Origin: a virus
Lineage: Duplodnaviria; Caudoviricetes
IMG/VR virus record: IMGVR_UViG_3300044656_000027
Span: 1-64,000 of that record
Direction: 5' to 3' (one strand)
DNA: 64,000 nt
Below the pieces are notes generated by a model. That model worked only from the letters and a program-made list of their open reading frames with translations. It had not been told where the DNA came from and did not search any database. The position numbers and the translations under genes were made by a program. Each line of letters starts with the position of its first letter. Position 1 is the stretch's first letter. Shown here in pieces: positions 4,184 to 31,046 of this stretch.

Positions 4184-4474
4184 TTAGTCAACGATAATCT
4201 TAAAAGTCAATGCACTGATCTCGCCATCGGCCATCTCAACAGTAGTGAAGCCAGGTCGGCAGCTAAGGACTCTTCCGCGTGGTCCTACGAAGCTCTGAGC
4301 AATGGCTACAGCCTTCATGGACTGATTGACCGCAGCAGCACCAATTGCGCGTAGAGTGACCTCACGTCCGTCATACACGTTGTTGGCAATAGCAGCAGCA
4401 AGGTTGGAAGCTGATGAAGAGGACTTTACCTTTAGTAATACCTCATTGTTAGTCAATTCCATTTGATTCTCCAT
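4184..4474 (-). CDS. spoVS: SpoVS-family (Alba-fold) protein
   Basis: LKVKSSS...LAAAIA...V.LRAIGAAAVNQSMKAVAIA....G..L...PGF matches the SpoVS pattern; start may be the second ATG at 4462. Confidence 0.9.
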   Translation of the reverse strand: MENQMELTNNEVLLKVKSSSSASNLAAAIANNVYDGREVTLRAIGAAAVNQSMKAVAIAQSFVGPRGRVLSCRPGFTTVEMADGEISALTFKIIVD

Positions 4475-4499
4475 ATGTGGTTCAGTATATGTTTCTTTG

Positions 4500-4546
4500 A
4501 TTATAAAGCAAAAGAGCCTTCCCCATAATTCTACAGGAAAGGCTCT
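4500..4546 (-). terminator. Terminator after ruvC followed directly by a TATAAT -10 box
   Basis: AGAGCCTTTCCTGTA-GAAT-TATGGGGAAGGCTCT-TTTGCTT-TATAAT. Confidence 0.7.
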
Positions 4547-4549
4547 GTA

Positions 4550-7186: not shown

Positions 7187-7384
7187 TCAGACATACTGCT
7201 TCACCCAGCGAGCCTTACCACCGTTGTCCAGGTCGATGACCTTGAGCATGGTGAACAGCGGCTTGATCTTCTGAGGGTTCTTCTTGTGCTTCTTCTTAGC
7301 AGCGCCGTTTCCACCAGTGCTCTTGTAACGACCCTTGGTCTTCTCGGCAGCGTACTTAGCCTTCATCCAGGTGACAGGCTCCAT
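7187..7384 (-). CDS. Small Lys-rich protein
   Basis: 65 aa; GGAGGAATAATG RBS. Confidence 0.65.
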   Translation of the reverse strand: MEPVTWMKAKYAAEKTKGRYKSTGGNGAAKKKHKKNPQKIKPLFTMLKVIDLDNGGKARWVKQYV

Positions 7385-7399
7385 TATTCCTCCATTTGG

Positions 7400-7466
7400 G
7401 TAGTTATTCCATACCCACTACTCTCTACACTTGCCAGGCAGAGAGGAATGAGTAAAGCTTAACTAC
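7400..7466 (-). ncRNA. Conserved intergenic structured element, copy 1
   Basis: GTAGTTA-AGCTT-TA-[stem-loop]-TA-TGGAA-TAACTAC. Confidence 0.75.
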
Positions 7467-7684
7467 TCGTCATCCTTCTCGAATGGGAAGTCAGCGTAGT
7501 AAAGGGGAGTCAGCGTACGCTCTACAGCGATCGTAGCATCTTCCCAACCCGCTCGGTAGTATGCCACAGCCAGGTTGTAAAGTTCAAGTCTCAGAGGATC
7601 TGTAAATGTTCCTGCCAAGTCATCAGGCAGGATAGTCTCTAAGAAGAACTGCTTACTAGGGAAGTTTGGCATTAGCTCAGTCAA
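7463..7684 (-). CDS. Hypothetical protein
   Basis: 73 aa; TTG start behind GGAGG. Confidence 0.55.
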   Translation of the reverse strand: MTELMPNFPSKQFFLETILPDDLAGTFTDPLRLELYNLAVAYYRAGWEDATIAVERTLTPLYYADFPFEKDDE

Positions 7685-8177
7685 AGGGAACCTCCAAATA
7701 GTTCATTAGATTTTTAAGTGTCATCATGTCGTCCTTGACTTTGCCAAGGACATGATTACAGTGCATACATAGCAAGCCGCGCACGCGGCCAGTAATATGG
7801 TCATGATCTATGTGCGCACTATTTGGAGAACCCTGGCGTTTATCTGTCAAATCGGTGCTACAACCAGGGCATTTCCAGTCTTGAGTGTTTCCTAGCTCTA
7901 TGAAATCTTTATAAGTAATCCCATATATTGCACAAGATCTGCAAATTTTGCAAATAGTAGCGTTCCCTCCAGTAGAGAAATCTCCTACTGGAAGAGTTCG
8001 CTCACATCTCTTACAGAAATCGGTACCTTCCCCCGATGCTCGCTTGTCCTGTAAAGTCTTGTACTTGTTTCTAGAGTATTCTCGTTCACAGTCTCTACAA
8101 CGTGCCCTGCCAGATCGGAAAGCGTCTAGTGACTTCTCTAGTTCACAAGTAGAGCATTTCTTACTGGAAAGGCTCAT
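7677..8177 (-). CDS. Endonuclease VII-family nuclease, probably a free-standing homing endonuclease
   Basis: Repeated CxxC zinc modules, then CPGC...HIDHDHITGRVRGLLCMHCN; start at MSLSSKKC. Confidence 0.88.
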   Translation of the reverse strand: MSLSSKKCSTCELEKSLDAFRSGRARCRDCEREYSRNKYKTLQDKRASGEGTDFCKRCERTLPVGDFSTGGNATICKICRSCAIYGITYKDFIELGNTQDWKCPGCSTDLTDKRQGSPNSAHIDHDHITGRVRGLLCMHCNHVLGKVKDDMMTLKNLMNYLEVPFD

Positions 8178-8865
8178 CAGGAAAATCCTGAAAACTCGCT
8201 GGGGCGATCTTTTGAAGTTCTTGAAGAACCAAGCCAGAGAATTCTCTGATTTCAGCATCTGCATGCACACTGTAGCGCTTGTGAAGCATATCACGCCATG
8301 CCCGCATATTTCCAGTCACCACGATGGCAGTCTCTACACCACCAGGCATTACGGCTCGTGCTGCTTCCCTAGCCTTCTTACCCTTGATTCCTACAGACTC
8401 TAGCTTCTCAACTAGCTTGTTGTAAAGCTGAATTGACTCGCGCTGATGACGACCCATCTCGGCAATACTACCAATACCGAGATTCTTGTCAATAGCGGGT
8501 GGAACAGTGATGATCGAGTCATCCATGTTCACGTATCGCTGTGACAGCTCACTATAGCTCAGATGGCGATGACGCACAAGCTCATGCGTGAGACTTCGGC
8601 TGACGCCTTCCACGTAGAAAGTAGCCGAAGCGTGCTCAAGGACACTGAAATGTCCTTGGGAGATGATGTTACTGATATACCCTTCGGCATCCGAAGTGAC
8701 AGGATTAGGCATGTGCCAGGACTGGTAACATGCTCGTCCTGCGAAATGTGCGAGTTCATCACAATCTGTTCCCGAATTCCCACTGTAGTAATCATCGAAC
8801 TTAGTTCCATGTACGGACTGAGGCGTATCAATCATCAAAGTCCGTGCAATTAGACTAACCTGCAA
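8161..8865 (-). CDS. thyX: Flavin-dependent thymidylate synthase
   Basis: GHFSVLEH and THELVRHRHLSYSELSQRY (RHRx7S) motifs; likely TTG start at 8865. Confidence 0.95.
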   Translation of the reverse strand: MQVSLIARTLMIDTPQSVHGTKFDDYYSGNSGTDCDELAHFAGRACYQSWHMPNPVTSDAEGYISNIISQGHFSVLEHASATFYVEGVSRSLTHELVRHRHLSYSELSQRYVNMDDSIITVPPAIDKNLGIGSIAEMGRHQRESIQLYNKLVEKLESVGIKGKKAREAARAVMPGGVETAIVVTGNMRAWRDMLHKRYSVHADAEIREFSGLVLQELQKIAPASFQDFPDEPFQ

Positions 8866-9220
8866 GCTCTTCTCCAAAGGTAGTTGCGTATGCGTCTCCC
8901 CAAGAAACGCCGGTGTCCTGATAAGTCTGGAGCTTAGTAAGCGCCTCAGATGCCTCATCCGTGAAATGAATTCCGTACTCGCGGAAAAGCTCGCCCTCAA
9001 GGTCTGGGAACTCCACGTTATTCAGCTTCCAGTTTTCCTCAAAGAAATCAATGGAAACCTTAAGCTTATTGATCAAGTAAACCCCGATCATACAAGAGGG
9101 GTAACCATCCTCTACATAGACGCAATCAGCGCCATCTTGCTGCTTATACACATAATTCTTGCCCTTAAGGGCGATGACGCCCGGAATATCATTCCGAACG
9201 TCATCAATGTCAATCAGCAC
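8855..9220 (-). CDS. Hypothetical protein
   Basis: 121 aa; CVY..PSCMIG and QDTG.SWG. Confidence 0.6.
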   Translation of the reverse strand: MLIDIDDVRNDIPGVIALKGKNYVYKQQDGADCVYVEDGYPSCMIGVYLINKLKVSIDFFEENWKLNNVEFPDLEGELFREYGIHFTDEASEALTKLQTYQDTGVSWGDAYATTFGEELAG

Positions 9221-9231
9221 TGTGATTTCCC

Positions 9232-9384
9232 TTACTTCTTCTCGTAGTTCTTCTCGAACTCTGCCTTGGTAATCCAGAACTCTCGTCCGGTATTACTCTC
9301 TCGAAGCTGGAAGCTATTTCCAGTCTTGCCAATCATTGTGTACTCGACATCATGGATCATCTTGTGCTTGAACTTGACAGCCAC
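9232..9384 (-). CDS. 50-aa hypothetical protein (not in ORF track)
   Basis: GTG start behind AAGGAG; MAVKFKHKM...FEKNYEKK. Confidence 0.6.
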   Translation of the reverse strand: MAVKFKHKMIHDVEYTMIGKTGNSFQLRESNTGREFWITKAEFEKNYEKK

Positions 9385-9392
9385 TAATCTCC

Positions 9393-9860
9393 TTAGGTGT
9401 TGTACTTGCCGTCTCTTTGCTCAACAGTAGCGCGAGAGGTACGTCTTGTCAACTCTCTAGATACTGCCTTACCGCACGCTTCTAGGTGGGTATAGAGGGA
9501 CTTTACCAGGATCTCATAGTTCTCACAAGTGTCCAGGTGATCCTCAGCTTCAATGTACTCAGGAGTCTGAGCTACAAGAGCCTTGGTCTCTGCCACTGTC
9601 TTGGCCTTGAGACGTACAGTAGCAGCATCACTGACTCTTTGCAAGACACGTGTGGCTTGACGAACAGCAATGGTGGCCTTTGCAACCTCATAACCGGCAT
9701 AACCAGTCCAACTGGTGAATTCGGAAAGAAGTTCCATTAGCTCAGGATCAGAAATTTCGGACAATCTTGCTGGTAGCTCCGGTTGGTCGTCGGATGGTCT
9801 GGCTGGTGCTCGTAGCCCCGTGCTCCCCAGTCCCCAACCGCTCTGTACTCTCTGGGCCAT
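9393..9860 (-). CDS. Helical protein, possibly a UvsY-like recombination mediator
   Basis: Start MAQRVQSGWG; coiled-coil character; next to an exonuclease and near recA; function inferred. Confidence 0.5.
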   Translation of the reverse strand: MAQRVQSGWGLGSTGLRAPARPSDDQPELPARLSEISDPELMELLSEFTSWTGYAGYEVAKATIAVRQATRVLQRVSDAATVRLKAKTVAETKALVAQTPEYIEAEDHLDTCENYEILVKSLYTHLEACGKAVSRELTRRTSRATVEQRDGKYNT

Positions 9861-10743
9861 AATTCTCACAATCTTTGCAAGTACCAGTAGGACATGCAGG
9901 GATAGGACCCCCGAAATCAAGTGCATTCGCAATTAGTCTCGCCATATCAATAATGGGGAAACTGTAATTGGGATCGTACTTAACTACGAATTCCTTTACT
10001 CCCTGATTAAACTTCGCTTCATAAATAAAGATGATGCGATCGTATGGAAGCCCCATCTCAGCGCACAGCGCGAGGTAGAGCTGCCCCTGACGCATGTGGG
10101 AGCTGAACGGCTCCTCAATGGCCTTCCAGAGCCCTTGTGGGTCTATCTTCTGACCTTCCGTATGGGCGTTGTAGATGTCAGGTGCCTCTATTCTAACCGT
10201 ACCCGCTCCCACGCTCTTAACCTCAATCAGAGCGCCCAAGTCTGGCACAGCGCCATCAGCATGTCCGGCAATTAGATACTGTTCATGTCGGAGAGGTACC
10301 TCGCGGTATATGAGAGTTCCAACAGTGTGGCAGTCGGGACACTTACTGGGAGAAAGGGTATCTCTAAAATAATGGGTACATGCAAGACATTCCCAATTGC
10401 CCCAAAGCTTTCCCATTTTCCATAGTCGCTTTTGCCACTTATCGTGAATGAGATGTCCTTCATCGAAGATGTTGAGGAGCTGTACCCCAATTTTCTCATC
10501 AGGCTTAAGATATGGGTTGTTGGAGTCTCGGCAAGTCTTGATTCGATAGTAGGTAGCACGTGGACACCAATTCTGCTTCGCCATTTCGGATGGATGGATA
10601 ATATCCTGTCGGCGAGTCGAAGGCTTTGAGTGTTCCTTCAACATATGAGCTTGAATGTCTCCCAGAAGGATAGTTCCCTTAGACGCGTTAGCCCAATCGC
10701 CTAGCTTTCCTTTCGCTTTTCCCCAGCCTCTTTGGATTGCCAA
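9748..10743 (-). CDS. Cas4-like PD-(D/E)xK exonuclease
   Basis: HPSE..WCPR, GHADG...IEVKS, QGQLY and C-terminal CxxxxCxxC; inserted Zn ribbon. Confidence 0.85.
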   Translation of the reverse strand: MAIQRGWGKAKGKLGDWANASKGTILLGDIQAHMLKEHSKPSTRRQDIIHPSEMAKQNWCPRATYYRIKTCRDSNNPYLKPDEKIGVQLLNIFDEGHLIHDKWQKRLWKMGKLWGNWECLACTHYFRDTLSPSKCPDCHTVGTLIYREVPLRHEQYLIAGHADGAVPDLGALIEVKSVGAGTVRIEAPDIYNAHTEGQKIDPQGLWKAIEEPFSSHMRQGQLYLALCAEMGLPYDRIIFIYEAKFNQGVKEFVVKYDPNYSFPIIDMARLIANALDFGGPIPACPTGTCKDCENYGPESTERLGTGEHGATSTSQTIRRPTGATSKIVRNF

Positions 10744-11048
10744 ATCTTTCTCTCTTTCCTTAGCTTGGCTCGTTCATCGGGCAGTAGTCCACCCCAAACT
10801 CCGTAGCGTTCATTGTTTACCATAGAGAATTCTAAGCAGGCTTCTAAGAGGGGGCAGGGTCGGCCATCGAGAGCGCCAGTGCATATATTCTTGGCGTCTT
10901 CCATCTCGTCATAGGCTTCCTCTTCCCCCTCTGTATCCCCGAACCACGGATCATAGTCCTTCGTGGCAGGGAATAACACACACTTAGCTGTCTTCTTAGT
11001 ATCGTCGCTAAACCATTGGGGAGCAACGCTACGCAGTTTCATTACCAA
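10701..11048 (-). CDS. whiB: WhiB-family Fe-S transcription factor
   Basis: Four Cys and YGVWGGL..ER; the CxxC is expanded to CTGALDGRPC. Confidence 0.88.
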   Translation of the reverse strand: MVMKLRSVAPQWFSDDTKKTAKCVLFPATKDYDPWFGDTEGEEEAYDEMEDAKNICTGALDGRPCPLLEACLEFSMVNNERYGVWGGLLPDERAKLRKERKIWQSKEAGEKRKES

Positions 11049-11358
11049 TTCCGGGACCTTCTCGTAGAGTCAGGTAATCATCGTATTGCATGATTACCCA
11101 TTTGTTTCCAGTACCCTGGAACTCTACCATAAAGATCGGAATTCGTCCATCCATAAGTGCATAGTCATAATTCTTCTGTAGGTCTGCATCCTTTAGCGAA
11201 TAGGATTTGGCTCCTGTTATCTTTGCCTCTACCAATTCGTATGCAGTCCGTATATCAGACTTACGAATCCATCCATTACCTGAACCAGAATTGACAAAGC
11301 CGGATAGCTCTTTGGCTATCCGGCGCTCTTGTCTCTGGCTGTCTTTCGTATCAGCCAT
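11029..11358 (-). CDS. Hjc-like Holliday junction resolvase (PD-(D/E)xK)
   Basis: SQRQERRIAKEL.G...SGSG...KSDI....LVEAK. Confidence 0.75.
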   Translation of the reverse strand: MADTKDSQRQERRIAKELSGFVNSGSGNGWIRKSDIRTAYELVEAKITGAKSYSLKDADLQKNYDYALMDGRIPIFMVEFQGTGNKWVIMQYDDYLTLREGPGIGNETA

Positions 11359-11705
11359 TAGTCTCCAATTAGAATACGCTGCACAATTACAGCAGACTTA
11401 TCCGCAAAGTGCTTGCGGTCATCATCGTTATACCACTGACCAGAAAGCTTGTCCAGAGTGACCGGAATCTTCTTAAGCAGCTTGGTCAGTGCCTCATCCT
11501 TCGTCAGAGGACCCTCAATGTCGCCAACCTCATGCAGGTCAAACGGAATGGGGCAGGAACAACCAGAATCGTGCGCCATGTAGAACTCGTTTGGACCAGC
11601 CATCCAAATAATGGTCTCGTCAAACTGCCAGTCCTCATAATCCCACTCCAGAATACCCAGCTCCGTCCAACCCATACGGTAAGCGTGGTCGAAGATGTAA
11701 GACAT
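11358..11705 (-). CDS. Hypothetical protein with DSGCSCP motif
   Basis: 115 aa, acidic; strong RBS. Confidence 0.65.
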   Translation of the reverse strand: MSYIFDHAYRMGWTELGILEWDYEDWQFDETIIWMAGPNEFYMAHDSGCSCPIPFDLHEVGDIEGPLTKDEALTKLLKKIPVTLDKLSGQWYNDDDRKHFADKSAVIVQRILIGD

Positions 11706-11720
11706 TATTCCTCCTATTGG

Positions 11721-11773
11721 TTAAGTAATCCATAACCGTTCTCCCTTTCGGGAGAGCGATTAAAGCTACTTAA
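11721..11773 (-). ncRNA. Conserved intergenic structured element, copy 2
   Basis: TTAAGTA-GCTT-TA-ATCGCTCTCCC-GAAA-GGGAGAACGGT-TA-TGGAT-TACTTAA. Confidence 0.8.
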
Positions 11774-12072
11774 TCAGCGATATAGATTCTATCGAGATCA
11801 TCGATAGGCTCATCAGGTTCACCGTGAAGAAGCCAGTAAATCACAGAGCGAAGCTCCGGACAACCTGACTGCTCACTACCACCCTGCGGGGCGCGTTGAT
11901 CTCCACTGACCAGCTTGTCAATGCTGAGACCATACTTGCAGTCGCAGTAACAATCCTGATCCATACGATGACCCATGTTATACACACAGATCCTACGACG
12001 TACAGCCTCAAGAGCCTGAGCAAGAGCCTCACGATCAGACTTTAGAAATCCATACGCAGGTTCGTTAATCAC
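11770..12072 (-). CDS. Hypothetical Cys-rich protein
   Basis: CVY..CDCKYG..GCPELR. Confidence 0.6.
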   Translation of the reverse strand: MINEPAYGFLKSDREALAQALEAVRRRICVYNMGHRMDQDCYCDCKYGLSIDKLVSGDQRAPQGGSEQSGCPELRSVIYWLLHGEPDEPIDDLDRIYIAD

Positions 12073-12341
12073 TTCTTACGTGCCCTCACTTCCTTGATGT
12101 CCTGGACCAGCTTGTAGATGTAGTATCCACCTAGTGTGACGGGCCAGGTTGCAATGATTGCTACTGTAAGCAAGAACTCCATCGTAGCACCGAGGGTACT
12201 ACCGTACAGCCATTGCCAATCCAGGTCAAGGGTATCAATCAACTTGATGTCATCGTTCCACGCGATGAGAGAAAACGATATGAGGACACCGACACCAAGG
12301 AAGTATAGTACCCCAAGGAATATCACGCAGCAACCTGCCAC
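12069..12341 (-). CDS. Small membrane protein
   Basis: Two hydrophobic helices. Confidence 0.55.
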   Translation of the reverse strand: MAGCCVIFLGVLYFLGVGVLISFSLIAWNDDIKLIDTLDLDWQWLYGSTLGATMEFLLTVAIIATWPVTLGGYYIYKLVQDIKEVRARKK

Positions 12342-12958
12342 TTGTGCAGATCATCGTTCTCCAGAAGCACCTTGTAGACTGCCTGAGCCTCGCGGAGCTG
12401 GACAACCATACCCTCAGCGTTGAACGCGTGCTCAACAGCGTTGGAGCCCTTGAGACGAAGCGTTTGCTTGAGACGAGTGATAGCACCCTGCTCAAAGTCT
12501 CCAGTGTAGAGGAGAGGAACAGTGCACAGCTCATGAACAGCAGTAGAGCCCGGCTGAACCTTAATGGTCTCCATCCACTTGGTAGCGTGGAACAGAGAGA
12601 ATCGCTTCTCACCCTTGGTCAGACCGTAGCCACGCTGGATACCAGAGCCCCACCACTCACCATAGTGATCACCAGGACCAAGAATATCCACGAGAGCCGT
12701 AGCGTTATCAAGAACCCATCCGGCAAAACCGAAGTTGTCCTCATTCTTAGTAGCCTTGAGGAAGCGAGAGCGAGACTGAACCCACACGTCATAAAGATAT
12801 CCAGCAGGATCGATAACAGTAGTGAGTCGTGCACTATTGTCCGGAAAGATTCCAGACGGACGAACACGAATAGCACTATTGGTACCGTCGATCTTCTCAG
12901 TGATCGTCATTCGCTCCTTAGACAGGCGCGGAATGCTGGGCCACTTCTGAAACTCCAA
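12323..12958 (-). CDS. RNA ligase (Rnl2-like adenylyltransferase domain)
   Basis: Motif I TEKIDGTN, QSRSR, YGEWWG.GIQ, FSLF, EGMVV and YK. Confidence 0.88.
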   Translation of the reverse strand: MEFQKWPSIPRLSKERMTITEKIDGTNSAIRVRPSGIFPDNSARLTTVIDPAGYLYDVWVQSRSRFLKATKNEDNFGFAGWVLDNATALVDILGPGDHYGEWWGSGIQRGYGLTKGEKRFSLFHATKWMETIKVQPGSTAVHELCTVPLLYTGDFEQGAITRLKQTLRLKGSNAVEHAFNAEGMVVQLREAQAVYKVLLENDDLHKWQVAA

Positions 12959-12979
12959 TTTATGCCTCCCGAATTAGTT

Positions 12980-13372
12980 TTACTGTGGTGTTAAGTATGG
13001 TGCAAGTACCTTGGTCAAGTCAACCGTTGATCCATAGGTGCTTGGAATCTGCACACCCTTGGTAATACGGTTGGCCATGTTGCTGACTTGCTCGATGATT
13101 GTATACGTGAAACCCTGTGGGAACAACTCAGTGTTGTCCGTGCAAGGTAAGGTGATGCTGAATGCACCAGACCCACCCGTGTTCGGTGAACCACCTTGTG
13201 TACCTGGTAGTACAGCAGTAAACGGAGTGATTGTCAAGAACTCGGAGTCTGTCTGGTCAGACAGGGATGGCACGCTCGGTACGAACTTTACCACCCCTGT
13301 CTCTCCCGCGCCACTGATGAAATTCACATACTTCCCAGTGACGATGATGGTCTTTCCACCAGTGATAGGCAT
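12980..13372 (-). CDS. Beta-rich protein resembling the N-terminal domain of actinophage tail-fibre/minor tail proteins
   Basis: Thr/Gly/Pro-rich; G.V.F.P...G.FSITLP.TD...L.P.GFTY.I.E pattern; TAAGGA RBS. Confidence 0.5.
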   Translation of the reverse strand: MPITGGKTIIVTGKYVNFISGAGETGVVKFVPSVPSLSDQTDSEFLTITPFTAVLPGTQGGSPNTGGSGAFSITLPCTDNTELFPQGFTYTIIEQVSNMANRITKGVQIPSTYGSTVDLTKVLAPYLTPQ

Positions 13373-13375
13373 AGG

Positions 13376-14413
13376 TTATTCCTTTGCGGTAGCGAAGTCA
13401 AGAGTCTTCTTGGTGATCTCTTCAAGTAGCTCTATGTTACCGCGTAGCTCCTCCACAATGGGGTTTGCACCCTGCCACTTGTAGTCTCCGTAGGAGTACC
13501 ACGAACCACCACGAGTGATGATCTTGTAGGAGATAGCCATAGTAATAACGTCACGTACTTTGTCGTAGTCGCCAGGCTTGAAGCCATTGGCAGTCTTATC
13601 AAAGTACATGTCAGCCGTCGCTGTACGACGCGGGGCACCAGCCTTGTTCTTTGTTACCTCAAACTTAACGCGCTGTCCAACGGCTACCTTTCCCTGTCCG
13701 TCTCTCGACTCATCAATGATCTCGTCAAGGGCTACCTTAATTCGCTGGTAGAACTGATAGTTCTTAGCCTTACCACCAGGCTCAGTCTTAGGTGTTCCGT
13801 ATGGAGAGAACCCACCAATCTTGTCACGGTACTGGTTGACAAAGAAACCAACATAAGGACGCTCATCGCTGAACGTATCCGGAATCTTACGGAAGAACTG
13901 CCCTACTCGTCTAGCTCCGCCACCAACGGTGAACCCTGACATGTCCTTCTCTTCTTCATCAGAAGCAATCATGGCAGGATATGAATCGATCACAATGCAA
14001 TCGTAAATATTAGCCTTAGCGGCATCAATAACGTTCTGGAAGCATAACTCCATGTTATTGTGCTCGAACACAGTAACACGGTCATTGTCTACGCCGCAAA
14101 GTGCAGCCCACTCAGGGTTATACGGCTCAGATGCTACCCAGTACACGGAATAATCAGGGTTCATTGCCTGATTAGTTGCAATGGTGTGGAGAATAGAGCT
14201 GGTCTTGGATGCGCTGGACTCTCCAACGATCTCAATCCAACGGTTAGCAGGCCAACCGCCACCTAACGCCACATCTAAGGAAAGAATTCCAGAGGACTGG
14301 CGTGGTGGAATGTAGATTTCGGACGCCATAATAAGGGGCTTTAAGCCAGCCTTAATTAGTTCCTTGTTCTTTGCAGCTTGGAACAGTCTTAACTTTTCGT
14401 GCTGATCAGACAC
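13376..14413 (-). CDS. recA: RecA recombinase
   Basis: SGILSLDVALGGGWP, variant Walker A GESSASKT, IVIDS, NQYRDKIG, PGGKA, KNK; GTG start 14413 (alternative ATG 14473). Confidence 0.93.
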   Translation of the reverse strand: MSDQHEKLRLFQAAKNKELIKAGLKPLIMASEIYIPPRQSSGILSLDVALGGGWPANRWIEIVGESSASKTSSILHTIATNQAMNPDYSVYWVASEPYNPEWAALCGVDNDRVTVFEHNNMELCFQNVIDAAKANIYDCIVIDSYPAMIASDEEEKDMSGFTVGGGARRVGQFFRKIPDTFSDERPYVGFFVNQYRDKIGGFSPYGTPKTEPGGKAKNYQFYQRIKVALDEIIDESRDGQGKVAVGQRVKFEVTKNKAGAPRRTATADMYFDKTANGFKPGDYDKVRDVITMAISYKIITRGGSWYSYGDYKWQGANPIVEELRGNIELLEEITKKTLDFATAKE

Positions 14414-14432
14414 GCATACCTCTTTCAAATAG

Positions 14433-14465
14433 AACGGGCTGGTAAGTATTACCCTACCAGCCCGG
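14433..14465 (-). terminator. Hairpin between nrdJ and recA
   Basis: CGGGCTGGTAGG-GTAATA-CTTACCAGCCCG followed by TTCTATTT. Confidence 0.6.
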
Positions 14466-14519
14466 TGTGACATTTGTCTAGTCTTCCTCGTACTACTCTC
14501 GCCAAGCGGTGTACTATTC

Positions 14520-16442: not shown

Positions 16443-16468
16443 AGATTAATACTCCGCTGGGATAGTAA

Positions 16469-16855
16469 TTAGATATGGATGCCGCCACCAGCATTCAATT
16501 CGGCAATGCTGGCAGAAAGAGATTGGCCTGAATCATTCTGACGTGCAGGCGTCGCTGCCTGGCTTCTGTCAGTGGGTGCATTCAGGCCATAAGTAGACTG
16601 CTGGAAACGGGGATGCCAACCACATTCACCACAGGCTGACACATGATTTCCAGGCAGTATTAGGATCGTATCAGAACCACAGCCACCACATATAGATCCC
16701 TTCGTAGTCGCAGCAGTTGGTACGTACTGCGGGATACTTGGTTGCTGTGGTTCAGGTTGTGGGGTATGTACCGGCTGATACAGTCCGTATAATTCCCTGC
16801 TCACTGGCTGTGGGGGTGGTGTCTGTCCGTTTAACTTGTTAGCCCAGAAACTCAT
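16469..16855 (-). CDS. Hypothetical Zn-ribbon protein
   Basis: Pro/Gln-rich N-terminus; CGGC...CGECG. Confidence 0.65.
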   Translation of the reverse strand: MSFWANKLNGQTPPPQPVSRELYGLYQPVHTPQPEPQQPSIPQYVPTAATTKGSICGGCGSDTILILPGNHVSACGECGWHPRFQQSTYGLNAPTDRSQAATPARQNDSGQSLSASIAELNAGGGIHI

Positions 16856-17273
16856 TGTGTTCTCCGTATGTGATTAGCCCTCTTTGGAGCATGTGGGAAA
16901 CAACCGCTTCCGCAATCGCAGTTCCTAGTTTGTAATTGTGGAAACGGAACTTCATTTTATCCTCCTCGCTCAGTAATTTCATAGCGTCGTCACTATTAAT
17001 CAGAGCGTAAGAGGCTGCTTCCGATGCCATATAGCACAGGAAGGGGAAGTCCAAGCCAAAAGGCAGAAGGGAATTCTTTCGGCCCCACATTTCCCTAGCC
17101 TCTGCCTCAAGGACATCAAGGCTGGCAGGATTCTGGCCGAATCGAATTGGGTCCTTCTGCATTTTGATTGGACCGATCATATCCCATGTCATTGAACGGG
17201 ATATTTCCATGGCGAGCTGCTGTAGAGGCTCAATCTCCTCTACAGGCTCGACTTCTTCAAATGGATCGTACAT
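16839..17273 (-). CDS. Hypothetical protein
   Basis: 144 aa; TAATG-coupled to polA. Confidence 0.65.
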   Translation of the reverse strand: MYDPFEEVEPVEEIEPLQQLAMEISRSMTWDMIGPIKMQKDPIRFGQNPASLDVLEAEAREMWGRKNSLLPFGLDFPFLCYMASEAASYALINSDDAMKLLSEEDKMKFRFHNYKLGTAIAEAVVSHMLQRGLITYGEHNEFLG

Positions 17274-19366
17274 TAATCCTTCGCATCTGCCCAGTTGCTT
17301 ACTACAGCAATCTTCTCCCTAGTCATTGCCAGCGGTACCTTGATGAGATCCTGAATCTCTGCTCCAGACATAGCTTCCAGGAGCATTGCACAGCCCTCTT
17401 CGATCCTGTCATCAGGACACTGAATGACTAGCTCATCGTGCACAGACAGAATCATATGGATCTCTCGACCCGGATTCAGCTTGGCATCCTCTCGGGTAGC
17501 CTTGTGCATGCGAATCATCGCAAGCTTGATGATATCACCAAGTGATCCCTGAACCAAAGAGTTGATGACCTGTCGCTCTCCACGTGCCAACACCGAACGA
17601 ACAGCACTGCTGTGACGCTCAGGCTCATACCACGGGAGGTTAACGGCTTCCTGCTCTGCAATACGGGGAACAATTTCCCACACACGACGCTTACGCCCAA
17701 GGATGGTACGAATGAACGGAGTTCCATTGCGCCCGCGCTTCTGCGCAAGAGCAACAATCTTATCCTTCCATTCATAAATCTCTGGGAATGCAATTCGGTG
17801 GTCATCGAGAAGCTTATTAGCCTCTTCCACTGTAATATTCAGCGTCTTCGCAATCTTAGGAGCCTGAGCACCATAAACAATAGCGAAGTTCAGAGTCTTG
17901 GCTGCATCTCGCATCCACTTCTCTACATCTGCAACAGCTACACCGAAGACCAGCGCTGCTGTCTGAGTGTGTGCGTCAATCCCTGCATGGAAACCATCGT
18001 AAAGACCACCATACCCAATCATGGAGGCAAGGACTCGAAGCTCCATCTGTGCGTAGTCAGCCACAAGGAACTTATATCCCTCAGGCGGAGCGAACAGACC
18101 ACGGACCTTCTTACCCAGCTCAGTCTTGGGTGCAGGAATGTTCTGGAGATTAGGTTCACGGGAAGAGAAACGTCCAGTCAGAGTACCGTACTGCACCAGG
18201 TCAGTAAAGATACGACCATCGAAGATACGACACGGCTTCTTATCGTTGCCTTCCACTCCCAGATATCCGTACACATATGTACTCAGGAGCTTATTGACTT
18301 CTGCATAAGCCAGTAGCGCATCAACTACTGGATTACCTTCGAATGACTTTAGTGACTCTGCATCCGTGGAGTAATCCAGAATGGTCAGCTCTTCGTGCCT
18401 CTGCTTTTTCTTCTTCCCGCCGTCAGTCAGCTTGAAAGGCTTTAGTCCCTGACCACCTTCCTTCTTAGGTCCATAAAGGATCTCGCATTTCTGCTGAGAG
18501 GAGTTGATATTGAACAGCTTTCCAGCCGCACGATATACATTTGCCTCAAGAACTTCCAGCCGTGCAGAGAGATCCTTCTCCAGATCCAGAATCGCCTGAA
18601 CGTCCACAGGAGCCCCGATGACACGCATCTGGGAGCAGACCTCAGTCACCTGGTTTTCGAGCCCCAGAATGGCCTCTACGTCCTCCTGAGACACCATCTG
18701 ACGGAACTTGCGGTAGAGCAGCCAGTCCTTACGAACGTCATAGAGAAGATAGCGAGCCACCTTGATGAACTCGTGCTTCTCAATGCACTTACCAACCTCT
18801 TCCTTGTCGTAATCGACACCGAAGTACCACTTGGTAAGGACCTTGAGACCCTTGTTCATCGGACGCTTACGCCATCCATAGGTGAACTCACCAATGTTCT
18901 CATCGATACCCCACTGCATGACAATGGTGTCGGTGTACGGGCCACAGGGGATGTCTCCAAAGCCGTCGTACATTGACGCAGCATCAAAGGTTTCACTGTG
19001 AGCAATCTTAATGATCTCAGGATGGAAGAACAGCGGACGCAGGATCTCGTAGACCACAGAGGGCTTGAGCTGAGTCGGAGGAGCATCAAAGGTCGGAGGG
19101 AAATTCTCGAACTTCCCTGTCTCCTTATTCTTCTTCCGGTATTCCTTCTTTAGAAGTACATTTCCATTAGGGTGTCCCATGGGAATGACAATAGAGCGAC
19201 CATAAGTAGCCAACCCAATCCACACCACTCGGTTCCGTGCCGGAACACCTCGCGTATCTGGTTCACTGCCATCCATTGTTTCTACGTCGAATACAAATGC
19301 ATCCTGCTTGAGGAAATAAGCAACCTCTTCCTTAAGACGCTTAGCGTCTAGGATAATCTCTTCCAT
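17273..19366 (-). CDS. polA: Family A DNA polymerase with 3'-5' exonuclease
   Basis: FDVET, TGRFSSREPNLQNIP, motif A ADYAQMELR, motif B R..AKTLNFAIVYG, motif C VHDE. Confidence 0.96.
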   Translation of the reverse strand: MEEIILDAKRLKEEVAYFLKQDAFVFDVETMDGSEPDTRGVPARNRVVWIGLATYGRSIVIPMGHPNGNVLLKKEYRKKNKETGKFENFPPTFDAPPTQLKPSVVYEILRPLFFHPEIIKIAHSETFDAASMYDGFGDIPCGPYTDTIVMQWGIDENIGEFTYGWRKRPMNKGLKVLTKWYFGVDYDKEEVGKCIEKHEFIKVARYLLYDVRKDWLLYRKFRQMVSQEDVEAILGLENQVTEVCSQMRVIGAPVDVQAILDLEKDLSARLEVLEANVYRAAGKLFNINSSQQKCEILYGPKKEGGQGLKPFKLTDGGKKKKQRHEELTILDYSTDAESLKSFEGNPVVDALLAYAEVNKLLSTYVYGYLGVEGNDKKPCRIFDGRIFTDLVQYGTLTGRFSSREPNLQNIPAPKTELGKKVRGLFAPPEGYKFLVADYAQMELRVLASMIGYGGLYDGFHAGIDAHTQTAALVFGVAVADVEKWMRDAAKTLNFAIVYGAQAPKIAKTLNITVEEANKLLDDHRIAFPEIYEWKDKIVALAQKRGRNGTPFIRTILGRKRRVWEIVPRIAEQEAVNLPWYEPERHSSAVRSVLARGERQVINSLVQGSLGDIIKLAMIRMHKATREDAKLNPGREIHMILSVHDELVIQCPDDRIEEGCAMLLEAMSGAEIQDLIKVPLAMTREKIAVVSNWADAKD

Positions 19367-19373
19367 TATCTCC

Positions 19374-19856
19374 CTATCGCTTACGGCCTCTTCTGAAATT
19401 CGGGTCTCTTACATCGCACTCCCACACAGCGATCTCATTGACGCACTCGAAGTACCCGAGCCACCCAGCATAGTATTTCTTGCCCAGGTATGTCAACTGG
19501 CTCTGCTGCACTCTCTTACCATAGTCATGGGTGTACGCCTCTGCCAGACGCTTGAGTTCCTGTGCCTGGTTGGGGTCTTCAAAGACATCAAGTACCTGAT
19601 AGTACCCACCATCTCTACCAAAGGTGTCACCAGTGGAATAGTCAACAACTACGACATAAACTGTATTCCCAACCATGGTATCGATTTCGAATACAGAATC
19701 TCCATACCACTTCTCTTCCACTGGAAGATCGGTCTTTTGTACCTCTACGTCTACGACTCTACCGTCATAGCTTTCTCGATTTCCCCATTCAACGTCGGGC
19801 GGCTCACCAGGATCAGTCATCCATACATCAGTTTCAACTAAAACCTTTACGTGCAT
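19374..19856 (-). CDS. Hypothetical protein
   Basis: MHVKV start behind AGGAGG; YSTGDTFG and WLGYFE. Confidence 0.65.
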   Translation of the reverse strand: MHVKVLVETDVWMTDPGEPPDVEWGNRESYDGRVVDVEVQKTDLPVEEKWYGDSVFEIDTMVGNTVYVVVVDYSTGDTFGRDGGYYQVLDVFEDPNQAQELKRLAEAYTHDYGKRVQQSQLTYLGKKYYAGWLGYFECVNEIAVWECDVRDPNFRRGRKR

Positions 19857-19873
19857 TTCTATTCCTCCTATGG

Positions 19874-19907
19874 GAAAGCCCCCCACCTAATTAAAGGCAG
19901 GGGGCTT
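19874..19907 (-). terminator. Terminator-like hairpin after ssb
   Basis: AAGCCCCCTGCCT-TTAATT-AGGTGGGGGGCTT-TCC. Confidence 0.75.
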
Positions 19908-19916
19908 AACAATTAA

Positions 19917-20615
19917 TTACTTAGTGTCCTTGTTGTAGGACAGACCCTCAGCGATCTCAGCCACCTTGCTCGGAGTATTGATGAACACAGTCTCCTCACC
20001 ATAGCAACGAGTCTGCGCCTCTTCAATCTCAGAGTCAGTCATCGGAATGATGCCGAACTCCTCTTCCACCATGCTGCGGTTCAGCGGGACAACAGTCACA
20101 CCATTACCACGAACGTACATGAGCTGGAAGTAACGACGCGGGTCATTGAGATCCATCTTCTCCATGTAACCCTGGAGAGCACGTGCAACCGGGAAGGTAA
20201 AGTCCCAGACCTTGACAGTCCAACCGTCCTCAGTAGCAGAGTTGGGGTCACTCATCTCAACAACGTTGATACGGTAGACCTCAGCCGCCTTGTAGTTCTT
20301 GGCGCACAGCGGGCAGTTGCCACCGTGGCAGTAGATCGGAGGACGACCCGGAATAAAGTGACGACGCCAACGAGCCACAGGCTCATCATCGAGAATCTTG
20401 ACGATCTTGTCACCAGACTGCTTGCCGAAGTCGATGTAAGGAGCCTTGACAGTCTCACGGCGCTCCTCAGTCTCACCAGCAGAGCCCCAACCCTTGCTCA
20501 CCTTACGGGTAACAGAAGGGCGAACGGGAGTCTCGTCGTAAGACTCCTGAGTGTTCTCCTCGTAGGAGTCCTCAGTGTTCTCGTCAACAACAGCAGTGCG
20601 GGTAATCTTAGCCAT
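19917..20615 (-). CDS. Phage single-stranded DNA-binding protein (gp32-like)
   Basis: Acidic N-terminus; RHF...C.GG.CPLC Zn site; replication context; strongly biased codons. Confidence 0.75.
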   Translation of the reverse strand: MAKITRTAVVDENTEDSYEENTQESYDETPVRPSVTRKVSKGWGSAGETEERRETVKAPYIDFGKQSGDKIVKILDDEPVARWRRHFIPGRPPIYCHGGNCPLCAKNYKAAEVYRINVVEMSDPNSATEDGWTVKVWDFTFPVARALQGYMEKMDLNDPRRYFQLMYVRGNGVTVVPLNRSMVEEEFGIIPMTDSEIEEAQTRCYGEETVFINTPSKVAEIAEGLSYNKDTK

Positions 20616-20670
20616 AAATATTTCTCCTAGTTAGTTTGGCACTTACGCCGATATCAGGAATTAGTTGGAA

Positions 20671-21018
20671 TTACTCAGCGCTAAAGTCAACCTGCTTAGC
20701 AATTGACCGTGGCTGCTTGGTCAGCATCTTGAACATTGTCATGTCGGGATGCTGAATGGAGTCTAGCACATGGCCGAACCGTGTGCTTAGGGCTCCCAGG
20801 TCAGTATCTGTGGGAACCTCTACAGTAACAGACGCGAAGCTGTCTGCACTCTCGTAGTCTCCCATGTTGACCTTGAAGGAACGACTAATCGCTACCTTCA
20901 TTGTGTCACCAAGTATATCAGTCGTAACTGTCACTGGCGTCTCAACAAACTCTGGAACAGTTCGTGTGCCCTCTGCTGGAACTTCGTCTCGCTCAACCTT
21001 ACGCCTTTGTGCGGCCAA
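20671..21018 (-). CDS. Hypothetical protein
   Basis: FKVNMGDYES motif; start uncertain. Confidence 0.6.
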   Translation of the reverse strand: MAAQRRKVERDEVPAEGTRTVPEFVETPVTVTTDILGDTMKVAISRSFKVNMGDYESADSFASVTVEVPTDTDLGALSTRFGHVLDSIQHPDMTMFKMLTKQPRSIAKQVDFSAE

Positions 21019-21365
21019 AGTACGCCTTCCTCTCTAGCAATCTTGATCAGGCCCTCAACCATAGCACGTGTGTACATGCGTCGTCTACCATTCGGCGTGC
21101 TGGAGGGCTTGACGTATGGGGACTTGGGGATGATACCTTCTTTCTCCCACGCACGCAAGGTGTTACTTGACCTGTTGCCAAGTGCCTTGCCGAGTTGGCC
21201 GATGGAAAAGAACTCCTGCTCTTTTCCACCGACCGTGAAGATATTAGGCTTGTCATCCCATTTCTCAATGTATTCCTCTTGGACTTCTCGAAATTCCTTA
21301 TGAAGAATAGGAGTTCGAGAACCGGGAAACATTCTATTTAGTTCTTCTTGCCAGGATGTAGCCAT
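20931..21365 (-). CDS. MerR-type HTH DNA-binding protein
   Basis: FSIGQLGKALG..SNTLRAWEKEGIIP...GRRRMYT. Confidence 0.85.
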   Translation of the reverse strand: MATSWQEELNRMFPGSRTPILHKEFREVQEEYIEKWDDKPNIFTVGGKEQEFFSIGQLGKALGNRSSNTLRAWEKEGIIPKSPYVKPSSTPNGRRRMYTRAMVEGLIKIAREEGVLWPHKGVRLSETKFQQRAHELFQSLLRRQ

Positions 21366-21372
21366 TTATTCC

Positions 21373-21879
21373 TTAGTCGTGATCGTATTCGAACTGAACA
21401 ACACGGTCAGGAGTCACAACGACAGTAGTATGATCTCCGAAAGTCTCACACAGCACACGCTCAAACTCACTCATGTTGGGAAACACAATATCACCCTTTA
21501 CAAAACCATCCGGGTGAGGATACTTCACAGACCATGGCTTCTCGTAGGAGTAGAAGTCCGTAGGCACATAGTCAGCGATGATCTCACCGTTCTCGTCGTA
21601 ACGGTCGTCCTCATCTCCGTCTTCCTCCCTCAACCAGGCGTTTGCTACGTGCGGATTAGAGGTGTAAGAGATATCACCAACGCCAAACTCACACGGCTCA
21701 CCATCATTGAAGTAAGGAGTGTACTGACGCCATGCAATTGCCTTGATGCCCTTAGCAAATGCCTCCTTGAAATAAGGAACCAGCTCCTCCATAGGACGCT
21801 GGTCGTAATAGCTGCGACCAAAGTTGTAGTATCCCTCAACAGGAATACCCATAAACGTACGGTTATCAGACTTACCCAT
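21373..21879 (-). CDS. Hypothetical protein, partner of the DUF6915-like gene
   Basis: WRQYTPYFNDGEPCEF, FGDH and terminal EYDHD; ATG 21879 behind AAGGAG. Confidence 0.7.
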   Translation of the reverse strand: MGKSDNRTFMGIPVEGYYNFGRSYYDQRPMEELVPYFKEAFAKGIKAIAWRQYTPYFNDGEPCEFGVGDISYTSNPHVANAWLREEDGDEDDRYDENGEIIADYVPTDFYSYEKPWSVKYPHPDGFVKGDIVFPNMSEFERVLCETFGDHTTVVVTPDRVVQFEYDHD

Positions 21880-22240
21880 TACTCTCCTTGTTGAATACAT
21901 CGTCAAAACTACCGTGATCCTTACGCTTTGCCCCAGACATCCAAGGCTTTAGGAGCATACCATCGATGTAGTCCTTGGGGCTAGGCAGCCAACCAAGATC
22001 CTCTTCTATGTGCTGCTCTGCAATAAGTCGCACAGGAACTTCCTTGCGGCCAACCTGGAGTACCTTACCAAAGATTTGCTGGCAAAGGAAGACCCCCAGT
22101 GTGTGGTGATACAGACTACGATGCCGAGCGTCACCGATTACCTGCTTGGACGAATCAATAAATTCATGAATGGCAAGGTAATCTTCTGGAGTACCACCCC
22201 ACTTATGCGCACTAGACTTAGCGTGGTACCAGGAATTCAC
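21872..22240 (-). CDS. DUF6915-like His-rich protein
   Basis: HAKSS..KWGG.PEDY..IH.F.D.SK....D.RHR...HH..G and AEQHI.ED.G..PS..D. Confidence 0.8.
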   Translation of the reverse strand: MNSWYHAKSSAHKWGGTPEDYLAIHEFIDSSKQVIGDARHRSLYHHTLGVFLCQQIFGKVLQVGRKEVPVRLIAEQHIEEDLGWLPSPKDYIDGMLLKPWMSGAKRKDHGSFDDVFNKESNG

Positions 22241-22449
22241 AGAGAATACAGCTCCTTGAGGTAGTTACGCTCATCCTTGTACTCCTTGTGGAGCATCTTG
22301 AAATGCTTGTACAGACGCTCAGTGAAATCCCAGTCCACCATCATGGCGTCAAGGTCAACGATGAACTCGAACAGAGCATCATCATCTCGCGTCTGGATCA
22401 GTGCGTCAAGCACATCAGCAGGGTCAATAGCAACATTCAGGTCCAGCAT
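22237..22449 (-). CDS. Hypothetical protein
   Basis: MLDLNV start behind GAGGAG. Confidence 0.55.
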   Translation of the reverse strand: MLDLNVAIDPADVLDALIQTRDDDALFEFIVDLDAMMVDWDFTERLYKHFKMLHKEYKDERNYLKELYSL

Positions 22450-22451
22450 TC

Positions 22452-22763
22452 TTACTCCTCTTCGAAATACTTGTACAGGTAAAATCCGTCTACCAACTTG
22501 ATGTCGTCCACCAGCATCCATGGACTGTAGGCTAGGTTATAACCTCCGTTACCAGAGCGCAACTCATCGAATACCTCTCGGCATTTGATGATGTAATAGC
22601 GCTCCTTGTCCTCAGGGTCCAACCAAGTGTGTACAATCTCTACACGAATAGAGTTGTAGGTGGTTTCAAAGCTATTATTGAACATCGAATCCACTTCATA
22701 AAGTGGAATGTCATAGGGCACTGACGGGAGTCCATTCATACTTGACAACAGGAAGCTTGACAA
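22452..22763 (-). CDS. Hypothetical protein
   Basis: ORF within the operon; true start probably downstream of 22763. Confidence 0.5.
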   Translation of the reverse strand: MSSFLLSSMNGLPSVPYDIPLYEVDSMFNNSFETTYNSIRVEIVHTWLDPEDKERYYIIKCREVFDELRSGNGGYNLAYSPWMLVDDIKLVDGFYLYKYFEEE

Positions 22764-22998
22764 CCTCTACAGCTTCAATTACATCTGCGTCGTACCAAAG
22801 ATCTTCGCCTTCCTGGTATTCAGTAGCACCTTGCTGCCATTGAACTTGGTAATGCTTCTTCTCGTACTCGAAGACACCCTCATAATGCACTGCCCAACGG
22901 CTGGTGTCAATGATTGTCTCATCGATACAGTTGTCAGGAATCTCCAACTCTTCTAGAAGATCCCTGTGGAATTCACGAGTAACTAGTTTAGTAACCAT
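22711..22998 (-). CDS. Hypothetical protein
   Basis: DTSRW and GATEYQ motifs typical of small phage proteins. Confidence 0.65.
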   Translation of the reverse strand: MVTKLVTREFHRDLLEELEIPDNCIDETIIDTSRWAVHYEGVFEYEKKHYQVQWQQGATEYQEGEDLWYDADVIEAVEVVKLPVVKYEWTPVSAL

Positions 22999-23311
22999 AC
23001 AGATCCCTTTCTAGACACCATGCCCAAGCCTCATAGGGGTCACACTCTTTATGCCCCATCATGCCACATATCTGTCCACATTCTCCACAATGGTAATGGG
23101 ACTCACCAGCGTAATCATCTGTGCAGCAAATGTCACAATAATCGTAGTCTTCATCCTCGTAGTAGTGCTCTTCCTCCTCTTCCTCAACCTCAGGGTTCAG
23201 GAGACGAAGCATAGCATCTGCTTCCAATCTTGCCAAGCGCTCATTGCGCTCATCAATCTTCTTCTGTTCTGCGTCTTCTTCACAATAGATACAGCGACAT
23301 TCGTCGTACAT
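22988..23311 (-). CDS. Acidic Cys/His-rich protein
   Basis: CRCIYC, CDICC, HCGECG..CGMMGH; poly-Glu tract. Confidence 0.6.
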   Translation of the reverse strand: MYDECRCIYCEEDAEQKKIDERNERLARLEADAMLRLLNPEVEEEEEEHYYEDEDYDYCDICCTDDYAGESHYHCGECGQICGMMGHKECDPYEAWAWCLERDLYGY

Positions 23312-23322
23312 TATTACCTCCT

Positions 23323-23374
23323 CTAATTATCCATAGCTACCTCCCTTTTCAGGGAGATAACTAAAGCTAATTAG
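23323..23374 (-). ncRNA. Conserved intergenic structured element, copy 3
   Basis: CTAATTA-GCTT-TA-GTTATCTCCCT-GAAA-AGGGAGGTAGC-TA-TGGA-TAATTAG. Confidence 0.8.
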
Positions 23375-23802
23375 CGACGACCCGAGCGAGAACCACCGCT
23401 CGAACCAAAGCCACTACGCGGACCAGAACCGTAGCGAGTACCGCCACCACCTGCACGGCAAGAGTTGCAGCCCTGAACCTTGTAGCCACGCGAAGTGGAC
23501 ACCATACCAGATCCCAGACGCGGACGACCAACCGTGACACCCTTTGGCACAGTCACGTGAATGTGCAACGGGTTAGCGTACAGGTAGGTGTGGGAACGGT
23601 AGTAAGTGGGAGAAACATAGACCAGTCGCGGAGACGGGTACTCAACCCACACGTGCGTGGTGCTGTAGTAACCGTACTCATACTCAGCGATGTTACCGCT
23701 GTCGTCGTTGGTGTAGTTGTCTCCCTGACCATCACAGGCAACCGCTCCGCTGAGAACAGCCAGAGCCAGGACCGTGCTAGCGAGCGCCTTGCCAACCTTC
23801 AT
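23371..23802 (-). CDS. Lipoprotein with Tyr-rich core and Gly/Arg-rich tail
   Basis: Signal peptide with lipobox-like AVA-C; tail GGGGTRYGSGPRSGFGSSGGSRSGRR. Confidence 0.75.
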   Translation of the reverse strand: MKVGKALASTVLALAVLSGAVACDGQGDNYTNDDSGNIAEYEYGYYSTTHVWVEYPSPRLVYVSPTYYRSHTYLYANPLHIHVTVPKGVTVGRPRLGSGMVSTSRGYKVQGCNSCRAGGGGTRYGSGPRSGFGSSGGSRSGRR

Positions 23803-30987: not shown

Positions 30988-31046
30988 TTAAGATAGAGCC
31001 AATCGAACGGAGAGACTTGCTCTCCGCTCTGTTGGTCCTACCTTAA
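30988..31046 (-). promoter_or_regulatory. Long irregular intergenic hairpin abutting an RBS
   Basis: TTAAGGTAG-GA-CCAA-CA-GAGCGGAGAG-CAAGT-CTCTCCGTTC-GA-TTGG-CT-CTATCTTAA then GGAGG. Confidence 0.7.

Follow-up and report, generated by a model that had tools for sequence, protein, structure and literature searches.

Genes of BRock-like Streptomyces phages are separated by an undescribed family of folded RNA signals, three copies of which lie in the window analysed here (64,000 nucleotides (nt), positions 1 to 64,000 of the IMG/VR virus record IMGVR_UViG_3300044656_000027, Caudoviricetes). Each element belongs to a polycistronic phage mRNA and forms a folded rod of about 22 bp, and its structure is under selection on the sense strand. 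With moderate confidence, and by analogy with a hairpin of the host, we propose that these elements are processing and stabilising signals for the host RNase III, of the kind known from the early region of phage T7.

The record of which the window is part is 111,289 bp long, with terminal repeats, a G+C content of 48.8% and 32 tRNA genes. The original prediction had recognised a common layout in three intergenic segments on the minus strand, running from an outer stem through a two-part core to the complement of that stem, and all three are built as it stated:

7400..7466, minus strand: copy 1 (67 nt), outer stem GUAGUUA/UAACUAC, long apical stem, 51.9 bits with the refined covariance model (R2)
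7458-7453 and 7413-7408, minus strand: core of copy 1, GCUUUA and UAUGGA
7463..7465, minus strand: stop codon TAG in the 5' outer arm of copy 1, ending the open reading frame (ORF) 7463-7684 (73 amino acids, aa)
7382..7393, minus strand: GGAGGAAUAAUG, Shine-Dalgarno sequence and start codon of ORF 7187-7384 (65 aa)
11721..11773, minus strand: copy 2 (53 nt), outer stem UUAAGUA/UACUUAA, core GCUUUAAUCG / CGGUUAUGGA, GAAA loop, 53.0 bits
11770-11772, minus strand: stop codon TAA of copy 2, ending ORF 11770-12072
11703..11714, minus strand: GGAGGAAUAAUG, Shine-Dalgarno sequence and start codon of ORF 11358-11705 (115 aa, phrog_6881, function unknown)
23323..23374, minus strand: copy 3 (52 nt), outer stem CUAAUUA/UAAUUAG, core GCUUUAGUU / AGCUAUGGA, GAAA loop, 62.5 bits
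23371-23373, minus strand: stop codon TAA of copy 3, ending ORF 23371-23802
23309..23321, minus strand: GGAGGUAAUAAUG, Shine-Dalgarno sequence and start codon of ORF 22988-23311 (107 aa)

Read on the minus strand, the layouts are GTAGTTA-A-GCTTTA...TATGGA-A-TAACTAC (copy 1), TTAAGTA-GCTTTA...TATGGA-T-TACTTAA (copy 2) and CTAATTA-GCTTTA...TATGGA-TAATTAG (copy 3), with one extra unpaired base beside the outer stem in copies 1 and 2. The stop codons (TAG, TAA and TAA in copies 1, 2 and 3) occupy element positions 2-4 and so lie in the 5' outer arm in every case, and two of the three copies (2 and 3) have GAAA loops; both features had been predicted. The folding energies of copies 1, 2 and 3 are -33.1, -26.4 and -28.6 kcal/mol (z = -5.3, -6.0 and -6.3), and none of 200 shuffles folds as well as any window copy. 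The window contains four occurrences of the pattern GCTTTA-N(10-40)-TATGGA, where 0.2 are expected; the fourth match (4470-4509) lacks stems and was rejected as a chance match in a terminator plus promoter-like stretch before the spoVS gene. That stretch (4470-4567, minus strand, just upstream of spoVS) contains a strong hairpin and then UUUUGCUUUAUAAUC, resembling a terminator plus a -10-like TATAAT.

As the original prediction also stated, each window copy is followed by GGAGG(N)AAUAAUG (GGAGG starts 7 nt past the copy 1 hairpin), and these are the only three occurrences in the 111-kb genome. This ribosome-binding-site module is private to this genome; it resembles the start-associated sequences of cluster K phages. 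Neither Pfam nor PHROGs gave a function for the flanking proteins. Another hairpin reaching from a stop codon to a Shine-Dalgarno sequence is found in the window at 30988-31046 (minus strand; core UUAAGGUAG...CUAUCUUAA, -32.6 kcal/mol), with GGAGG directly after it, and is unmatched by the covariance model.

MAFFT misaligned copy 1, and the covariance model was therefore seeded from three gap-free copies with a hand-written structure, and then refined on 29 copies (model R2). This refined model finds eight copies in the 111-kb genome, five of them at 99-103 kb, beyond the window, so that describing the element as three-copy was an undercount. The relatives needed to extend the search were found by protein comparison, since a near-identity DNA search of the phage collection returned none: the DNA polymerase is ∼60% identical to those of BRock, pSt2308, GiJojo, Alone3 and LuckySocke (Streptomyces phages of 112-116 kb), and we take the host to be Streptomyces because these polymerase relatives infect Streptomyces. 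With the covariance model we collected 76 distinct copies over 14 genomes (∼111-116 kb), namely this genome and 13 relatives with 3-9 copies each: five to seven in each of the named relatives, seven in the complete IMG/VR genome G001 and three to nine in each of seven further IMG/VR genomes. Two IMG/VR fragments have single copies. A strict DNA pattern with CTAG feet matched only contigs of ∼110-115 kb or their fragments in IMG/VR and metagenomes, and a loose core pattern matched more than 117 stretches in IMG/VR, of which three out of 80 screened were genuine. Rfam gave no match at the gathering score in the 64-kb window, and a search of the 12 kb surrounding the copies at E up to 5 gave just three chance matches; no description of the motif was found in the BRock paper or in literature searches. 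Genome-wide local folding combined with a crude ORF caller was too noisy to yield a complete list of intergenic hairpins.

The 76 copies define a helix with a fixed base and a free top. The rod has a median length of 22 bp (range 17-27); the outer stem is fixed at 7 bp and pairing ends there, the next position being paired in only 28 of the 76 copies. The core reads GCUU-nn-RUC(G) in the 5' arm and (C)GGY-nn-UGG in the 3' arm, and pairs in the order C-G, U.G wobble, UxU mismatch, two variable pairs, R-Y, U.G and C-G; the apical stem-loop beyond it is free to vary (19 of the 76 copies have a GAAA loop). The UxU mismatch is present in 75 copies, the adjoining U.G in 73 and the second U.G, five pairs further on, in ∼65-70; GCUU, UGG and NUAG/CUAN at the feet are also near-invariant. 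The part invariant across the family is therefore (G)CUU / UGG with UxU and U.G, which is less than the invariant core with UA/UA originally described: the last A of UGGA varies, and the UA/UA pairs covary to GC/GC in a subclass. In Alone3 we observed a second class of hairpins fused to stop codons, with the core G(C)UUGCAUC / GGUGYnG and UA/UA swapped to GC/GC. Almost all gaps of 70-95 nt in the small-gene region at the right end of this genome (100000-115924) hold a long hairpin fused to a stop codon, and the second class lies in these gaps:

103204-103286: Alone3 gap with a second-class hairpin
104049-104125: Alone3 gap with a second-class hairpin
109233-109301: Alone3 gap with a second-class hairpin
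109709-109790: Alone3 gap with a second-class hairpin
109929-110008: Alone3 gap with a second-class hairpin

Among the 72 distinct rows of the covariation alignment (which was fitted to the model and so favours the pairing figures somewhat), 91.4% of cells pair; shuffles reach 65.6%, and a shift of the partners by one to three columns leaves 38-48%. Compensatory double changes are seen in 21 of the 22 pairs. Copies at matching genome positions keep the fold despite wholly changed stems. The sense strand folds more stably than the antisense strand in all 76 copies (medians -29.4 versus -19.1 kcal/mol), and G.U oppositions outnumber A/C oppositions by 119 to 35 with the two fixed wobbles excluded. 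The original claim of a covarying sense-strand RNA with G.U pairs is thus borne out.

A strand-specific structure with a conserved mismatch could also be expected of a hairpin acting on single-stranded DNA (REP/RAYT-like, IS200/IS605-like or a priming signal), and the feet GTAG/CTAG...CTAC/CTAG recall the REP tetranucleotide. However, the Y1 transposase (PF01797) is absent from six genomes in which controls matched, the copies follow the direction of their flanking genes between a stop and a start, with many G.U pairs, and they are held in place across genomes rather than scattered; we regard an action on DNA as very improbable. K-turn, loop E, boxA/nut, ribozyme, CRISPR-repeat mimic and translational bypass were also considered and were dropped on sequence grounds.

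The core shares a specific arrangement with a host RNA. RNase III of Streptomyces coelicolor (AbsB) is reported to cleave the rpsO-pnp hairpin to either side of a 4/4 internal loop, with most of the cutting on the 5' side (Chang et al. 2005, reviewed in PMC10126417), and sites upstream of pnp have been detected in vivo (PMC4681348). The hairpin is kept across the genus Streptomyces, and in five Streptomyces genomes its 5' arm reads ..UCGGU-AGUG-GC.. and its 3' arm ..GC-UUCG-AUCGA... The two strands correspond as follows:

GCUU-side strand: host GCUU-CG-AUCG; phage GCUU-UA-RUCG
Partner strand: host CGGU-AG-UGGC; phage CGGY-UA-UGGN

The host helix is in register with the phage helix, running G-C, C-G, U.G, UxU, two central positions, A-U, U.G, C-G, G-C; the two are alike in G-C, C-G, U.G and UxU on one side and in R-Y, U.G, C-G and G-C on the other. 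The flanking helices are also of similar length (8-9 further positions on the GCUU side, at least 11-13 on the AUCG side). Relative to that of the host, the phage helix is upside down: the phage has the GCUU strand as its 5' arm, the host as its 3' arm, and the phage loop closes the long side. A two-strand profile fixed in advance and made from phage copies alone gives the host helix 6.8 bits, a score that random registers (from 400 kb of evenly spaced S. venezuelae DNA) reach at 2e-5, which corresponds to p ∼1e-3 over 50 registers. The model in phage orientation has no match in 126 Streptomyces genomes (5 + 121, with only some candidates scored), because the host helix is upside down, and the host orientation is never used by the phages. 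RNase III (PF14622) and the double-stranded RNA-binding domain (PF00035) were not found in the phages, which would therefore need the host enzyme.

This likeness lends specific support to an RNase III-type processing site, one of several roles that the original prediction had suggested. RNase III binding, cutting, the position of the cut and the consequences for both messages are what we infer from the host analogy. Host RNase III would cut long phage messages between cistrons at the elements, with the main cut in the 3' arm, near UAUG, if the analogy holds. This would leave the upstream message with a protective hairpin at its 3' end, and the downstream message with a leader of ∼10 nt and a spacer ahead of a strong ribosome-binding site. 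A basal stem of constant length (7 bp) is consistent with an enzyme that measures distance along a helix.

Several points weigh against processing by RNase III. With the two central pairs omitted the host helix scores 22.4 bits, which is above the median phage copy and reached at ∼6e-7, but the omission was chosen after seeing the match, so that the strong p rests on a post hoc step; moreover, the likeness test covered one host site. The two central positions of the box differ (UA/UA or GC/GC in the phages, CG/AG in the host), and the phage box is nearly all paired, in contrast to the open 4/4 loop drawn for the host site. The sequence requirements of bacterial RNase III are generally regarded as low, and a fixed core could equally indicate another protein. 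The exact placement of the stop codon in the stem is not required by RNase III processing. Finally, the Streptomyces host of this metagenomic phage is presumed from its relatives only.

A core of constant sequence and shape in a helix that elsewhere varies freely, with the ribosome-binding site beginning a few nucleotides past the hairpin, is also what one might expect of an operator or protective site, at which a phage RNA-binding protein reads the UxU/U.G box and controls downstream translation or shields the mRNA. The first candidate for such a partner, already named in the original prediction, is a product of the window itself:

4196..4438, minus strand: gene of the SpoVS family (Alba fold), 79.1 bits, over the Pfam cut-off; candidate RNA-binding partner only

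SpoVS is a member of the Alba DNA/RNA-binding superfamily (PMC11621453). All 12 complete clade genomes carry its gene, its product is among the best conserved proteins there (79-80% identical, versus ∼60% for the DNA polymerase), and a search of 50,697 phage records found it nowhere outside this clade except in two gut contigs. What stands of the suggestion is this presence in every complete clade genome, which is a co-occurrence only; within one clade it is trivial, as all core genes show it. Such an operator would not account for the likeness between the core and the host RNase III site, and the spread of start distances (0-46 nt) is wide for one. An operator for SpoVS or another phage protein thus seems to us unlikely, if worth keeping in view.

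The elements lie between genes in a consistent manner: 72-76 of the 76 copies are between a stop and a start, and every copy is oriented with its flanking genes. The upstream stop (of ORFs of at least 40 codons) begins at element position 2 in 51 of the 76 copies, and nearly all of the remainder are at most 12 nt upstream. It is TAG in 52 out of 72 cases, compared with 26-34% genome-wide. The start codon (of ORFs of at least 30 codons) is 0-46 nt past the 3' arm, with a median of 15, and is preceded by a Shine-Dalgarno-like sequence in 65 copies. The tetranucleotide CTAG is under-represented, at 0.64-0.70 of expectation in this genome and in Alone3, yet most elements carry two, one per foot.

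Such an arrangement, in which the helix base sets the stop beside the Shine-Dalgarno sequence, might serve translational coupling: the fold would join the stop and the next ribosome-binding site, or the terminating ribosome would melt the stem, making downstream initiation depend on upstream translation. However, CUAG is kept even where an in-frame stop lies upstream of the element, the conserved core and the fixed stem length are not explained, and the modelled accessibility of the Shine-Dalgarno sequence and AUG is alike with the 5' arm free or masked (0.48 versus 0.53). We therefore consider coupling improbable. The same modelling shows no consistent change and gives no support to a switch that hides the ribosome-binding site. 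The phage-wide switch of the original prediction is conjectural.

The position of the stop codon also enters a more elaborate form of the RNase III proposal, which we think quite unlikely, in which the phage took the autoregulatory rpsO-pnp site of the host, inverted it and joined it to stop codons. In this form, translation would decide whether the site is cut: ribosomes terminating in the 5' arm would melt the site and leave the operon intact, and when upstream translation falls the rod would form and be cut. The elements may in addition soak up RNase III, since up to nine copies per genome on abundant transcripts could titrate the enzyme and disturb host control of PNPase.

Stable hairpins (-21 to -41 kcal/mol) directly after stop codons, including those in nearly every right-end gap of Alone3, raise the question of termination. 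The elements are not intrinsic terminators, in agreement with the original prediction: none of the 76 copies has four T within 10 nt downstream. Attenuators of a U-tract-less kind have reportedly been seen in the early region of phiC31, and the elements could be attenuators or insulators of this sort between gene blocks, some of them combined with a promoter as in the PeSL cassettes of T4. TTGAC(A/T) is found in 15 of the 76 copies, ∼12 of them in the apical loop, mostly with a TTGRCT-like hexamer 17-18 nt later in the 3' arm; PeSLs are likewise promoter plus stem-loop units spanning stop codon to start codon (PMC2839356). Against this, mycobacterial RNA polymerase requires a U-tract (PMC3993855), a terminator would need neither the conserved UxU/U.G box nor a fixed 7-bp basal stem, and the -10-like hexamers, which are weak, have no A at position 2. 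The window copies, moreover, sit within a long co-directional array of replication genes, and none of them overlaps a sigma-70-like or terminator-like match, though some promoter-like matches are nearby (e.g. 23236-23208). An attenuator or insulator is in our judgement unlikely.

The hairpins with TTGACA or TTGACT in the loop form a subset of their own. In this subset the TTGRCT-like hexamer lies in the 3' outer arm and is followed by a second CUAG segment able to pair with the arm, so that it looks like a promoter-in-stem-loop or two-state design, reminiscent of the T4 PeSLs (PMC2839356):

L189, 6744-6801, minus strand: TTGACA/TTGACT-loop hairpin
L166, 9787-9844, minus strand: TTGACA/TTGACT-loop hairpin
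L177, 8048-8106, minus strand: TTGACA/TTGACT-loop hairpin
L178, 9592-9650, plus strand: TTGACA/TTGACT-loop hairpin
L190, 17567-17625, plus strand: TTGACA/TTGACT-loop hairpin
Genome of the window, 103774-103831, minus strand: TTGACA/TTGACT-loop hairpin, beyond the window

Elsewhere in the latter genome, at 73-84 kb, the 32 tRNA genes (minus strand) are interspersed with many near-consensus TTGACA-N17-TAnnnT promoters.

The elements and the T4 PeSLs (PMC2839356, PMC4122927) are both stem-loops with a Shine-Dalgarno sequence; a setting beside small variable genes and mosaic joints may be a further common feature, and the TTGACA-loop subset adds to the resemblance. In PeSLs, however, the conserved part is a sigma-70 promoter, whereas here it is a two-strand core inside a helix, and promoter matches are lacking in most copies, among them the three window copies.

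Related genomes, among them the collinear relative G001, carry a counterpart of copy 3 at the corresponding position, whereas copies 1 and 2 are missing from G001. At two sites, the homology between genomes is interrupted within ∼17 nt of the end of an element:

W03, 104798-104816, versus W04, 102538: breakpoint beside an element
W02, 70814-70894, versus W03, 71517-71597: breakpoint beside an element

Partner genes are swapped: one upstream gene is found with different downstream genes, and vice versa. In Alone3, the element brings with it, behind the ArdA gene, the final 16 nt of a foreign upstream gene, which resembles a recombination scar. Together with the absence of copies 1 and 2 from G001 and the private ribosome-binding-site module of the three window copies, the breakpoints could indicate that the elements are linkers for homologous recombination, moving small gene cassettes in the manner of PeSLs or of cluster M CR3 repeats, with the RNA fold secondary. 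But mosaic joints that survive in phages sit at gene boundaries anyway, a shared core of ∼9+8 nt split by a variable stem is poor recombination homology, and recombination leaves the compensatory changes, conserved wobbles and sense-strand bias unexplained; we judge it decidedly improbable as the main role. The PeSL-like cassette boundary put forward in the original prediction fares accordingly: breakpoints do lie beside elements, and this may simply follow from gene boundaries.

Among known systems, the RNase III sites of T7 and SP82 are the closest in function, and the T4 PeSLs, cluster K ESAS and cluster M CR repeats the closest in layout. The early region of T7 has the RNase III signals R0.3, R0.5, R1, R1.1 and R1.3, and the Bacillus phages SP82 and SPO1 also have such signals. 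The sites of T7, SP82 and SPO1 and the elements are long, irregular intercistronic hairpins in polycistronic phage mRNA, with a core common within a phage, no U-tract, a following ribosome-binding site next to them and a reliance (here predicted) on the host enzyme. They differ in that the elements are known from sequence alone, the host and enzyme are others (Streptomyces AbsB), the box is a near-paired UxU/U.G rather than an open loop and the stop codon is built into the basal stem; they share neither sequence similarity nor an Rfam family. The cluster K SAS/ESAS (PMC3203893) and cluster M CR3/CR4 (PMC7953290) are, like the elements, actinophage repeats that keep to a single orientation and lie shortly before start codons in the non-structural half of the genome, with inverted repeats and a conserved Shine-Dalgarno module. 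ESAS are 17-bp imperfect inverted repeats of conserved sequence beside the 13-bp SAS GGGATAGGAGCCC (PMC3203893); free covariation is not described for their conserved 17-bp arms, whereas the arms of the elements covary outside a core of ∼9 nt. ESAS and CR also have another sequence and are not described as fused to stop codons, and the Shine-Dalgarno module found here differs from that of ESAS and is private to this genome.

The elements would add a covariation-supported RNA family to actinophage genomes, where most intergenic signals lack annotation. They also suggest a testable rule of sequence and shape for Streptomyces RNase III, a UxU/U.G box ∼9 bp from one helix end; the specificity of AbsB is poorly defined, though AbsB controls antibiotic production. 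Isolated relatives carrying the elements exist (Alone3 and LuckySocke, both on S. lividans, and BRock), and, if the proposed role is confirmed, the elements could provide compact operon-processing parts for Streptomyces engineering.

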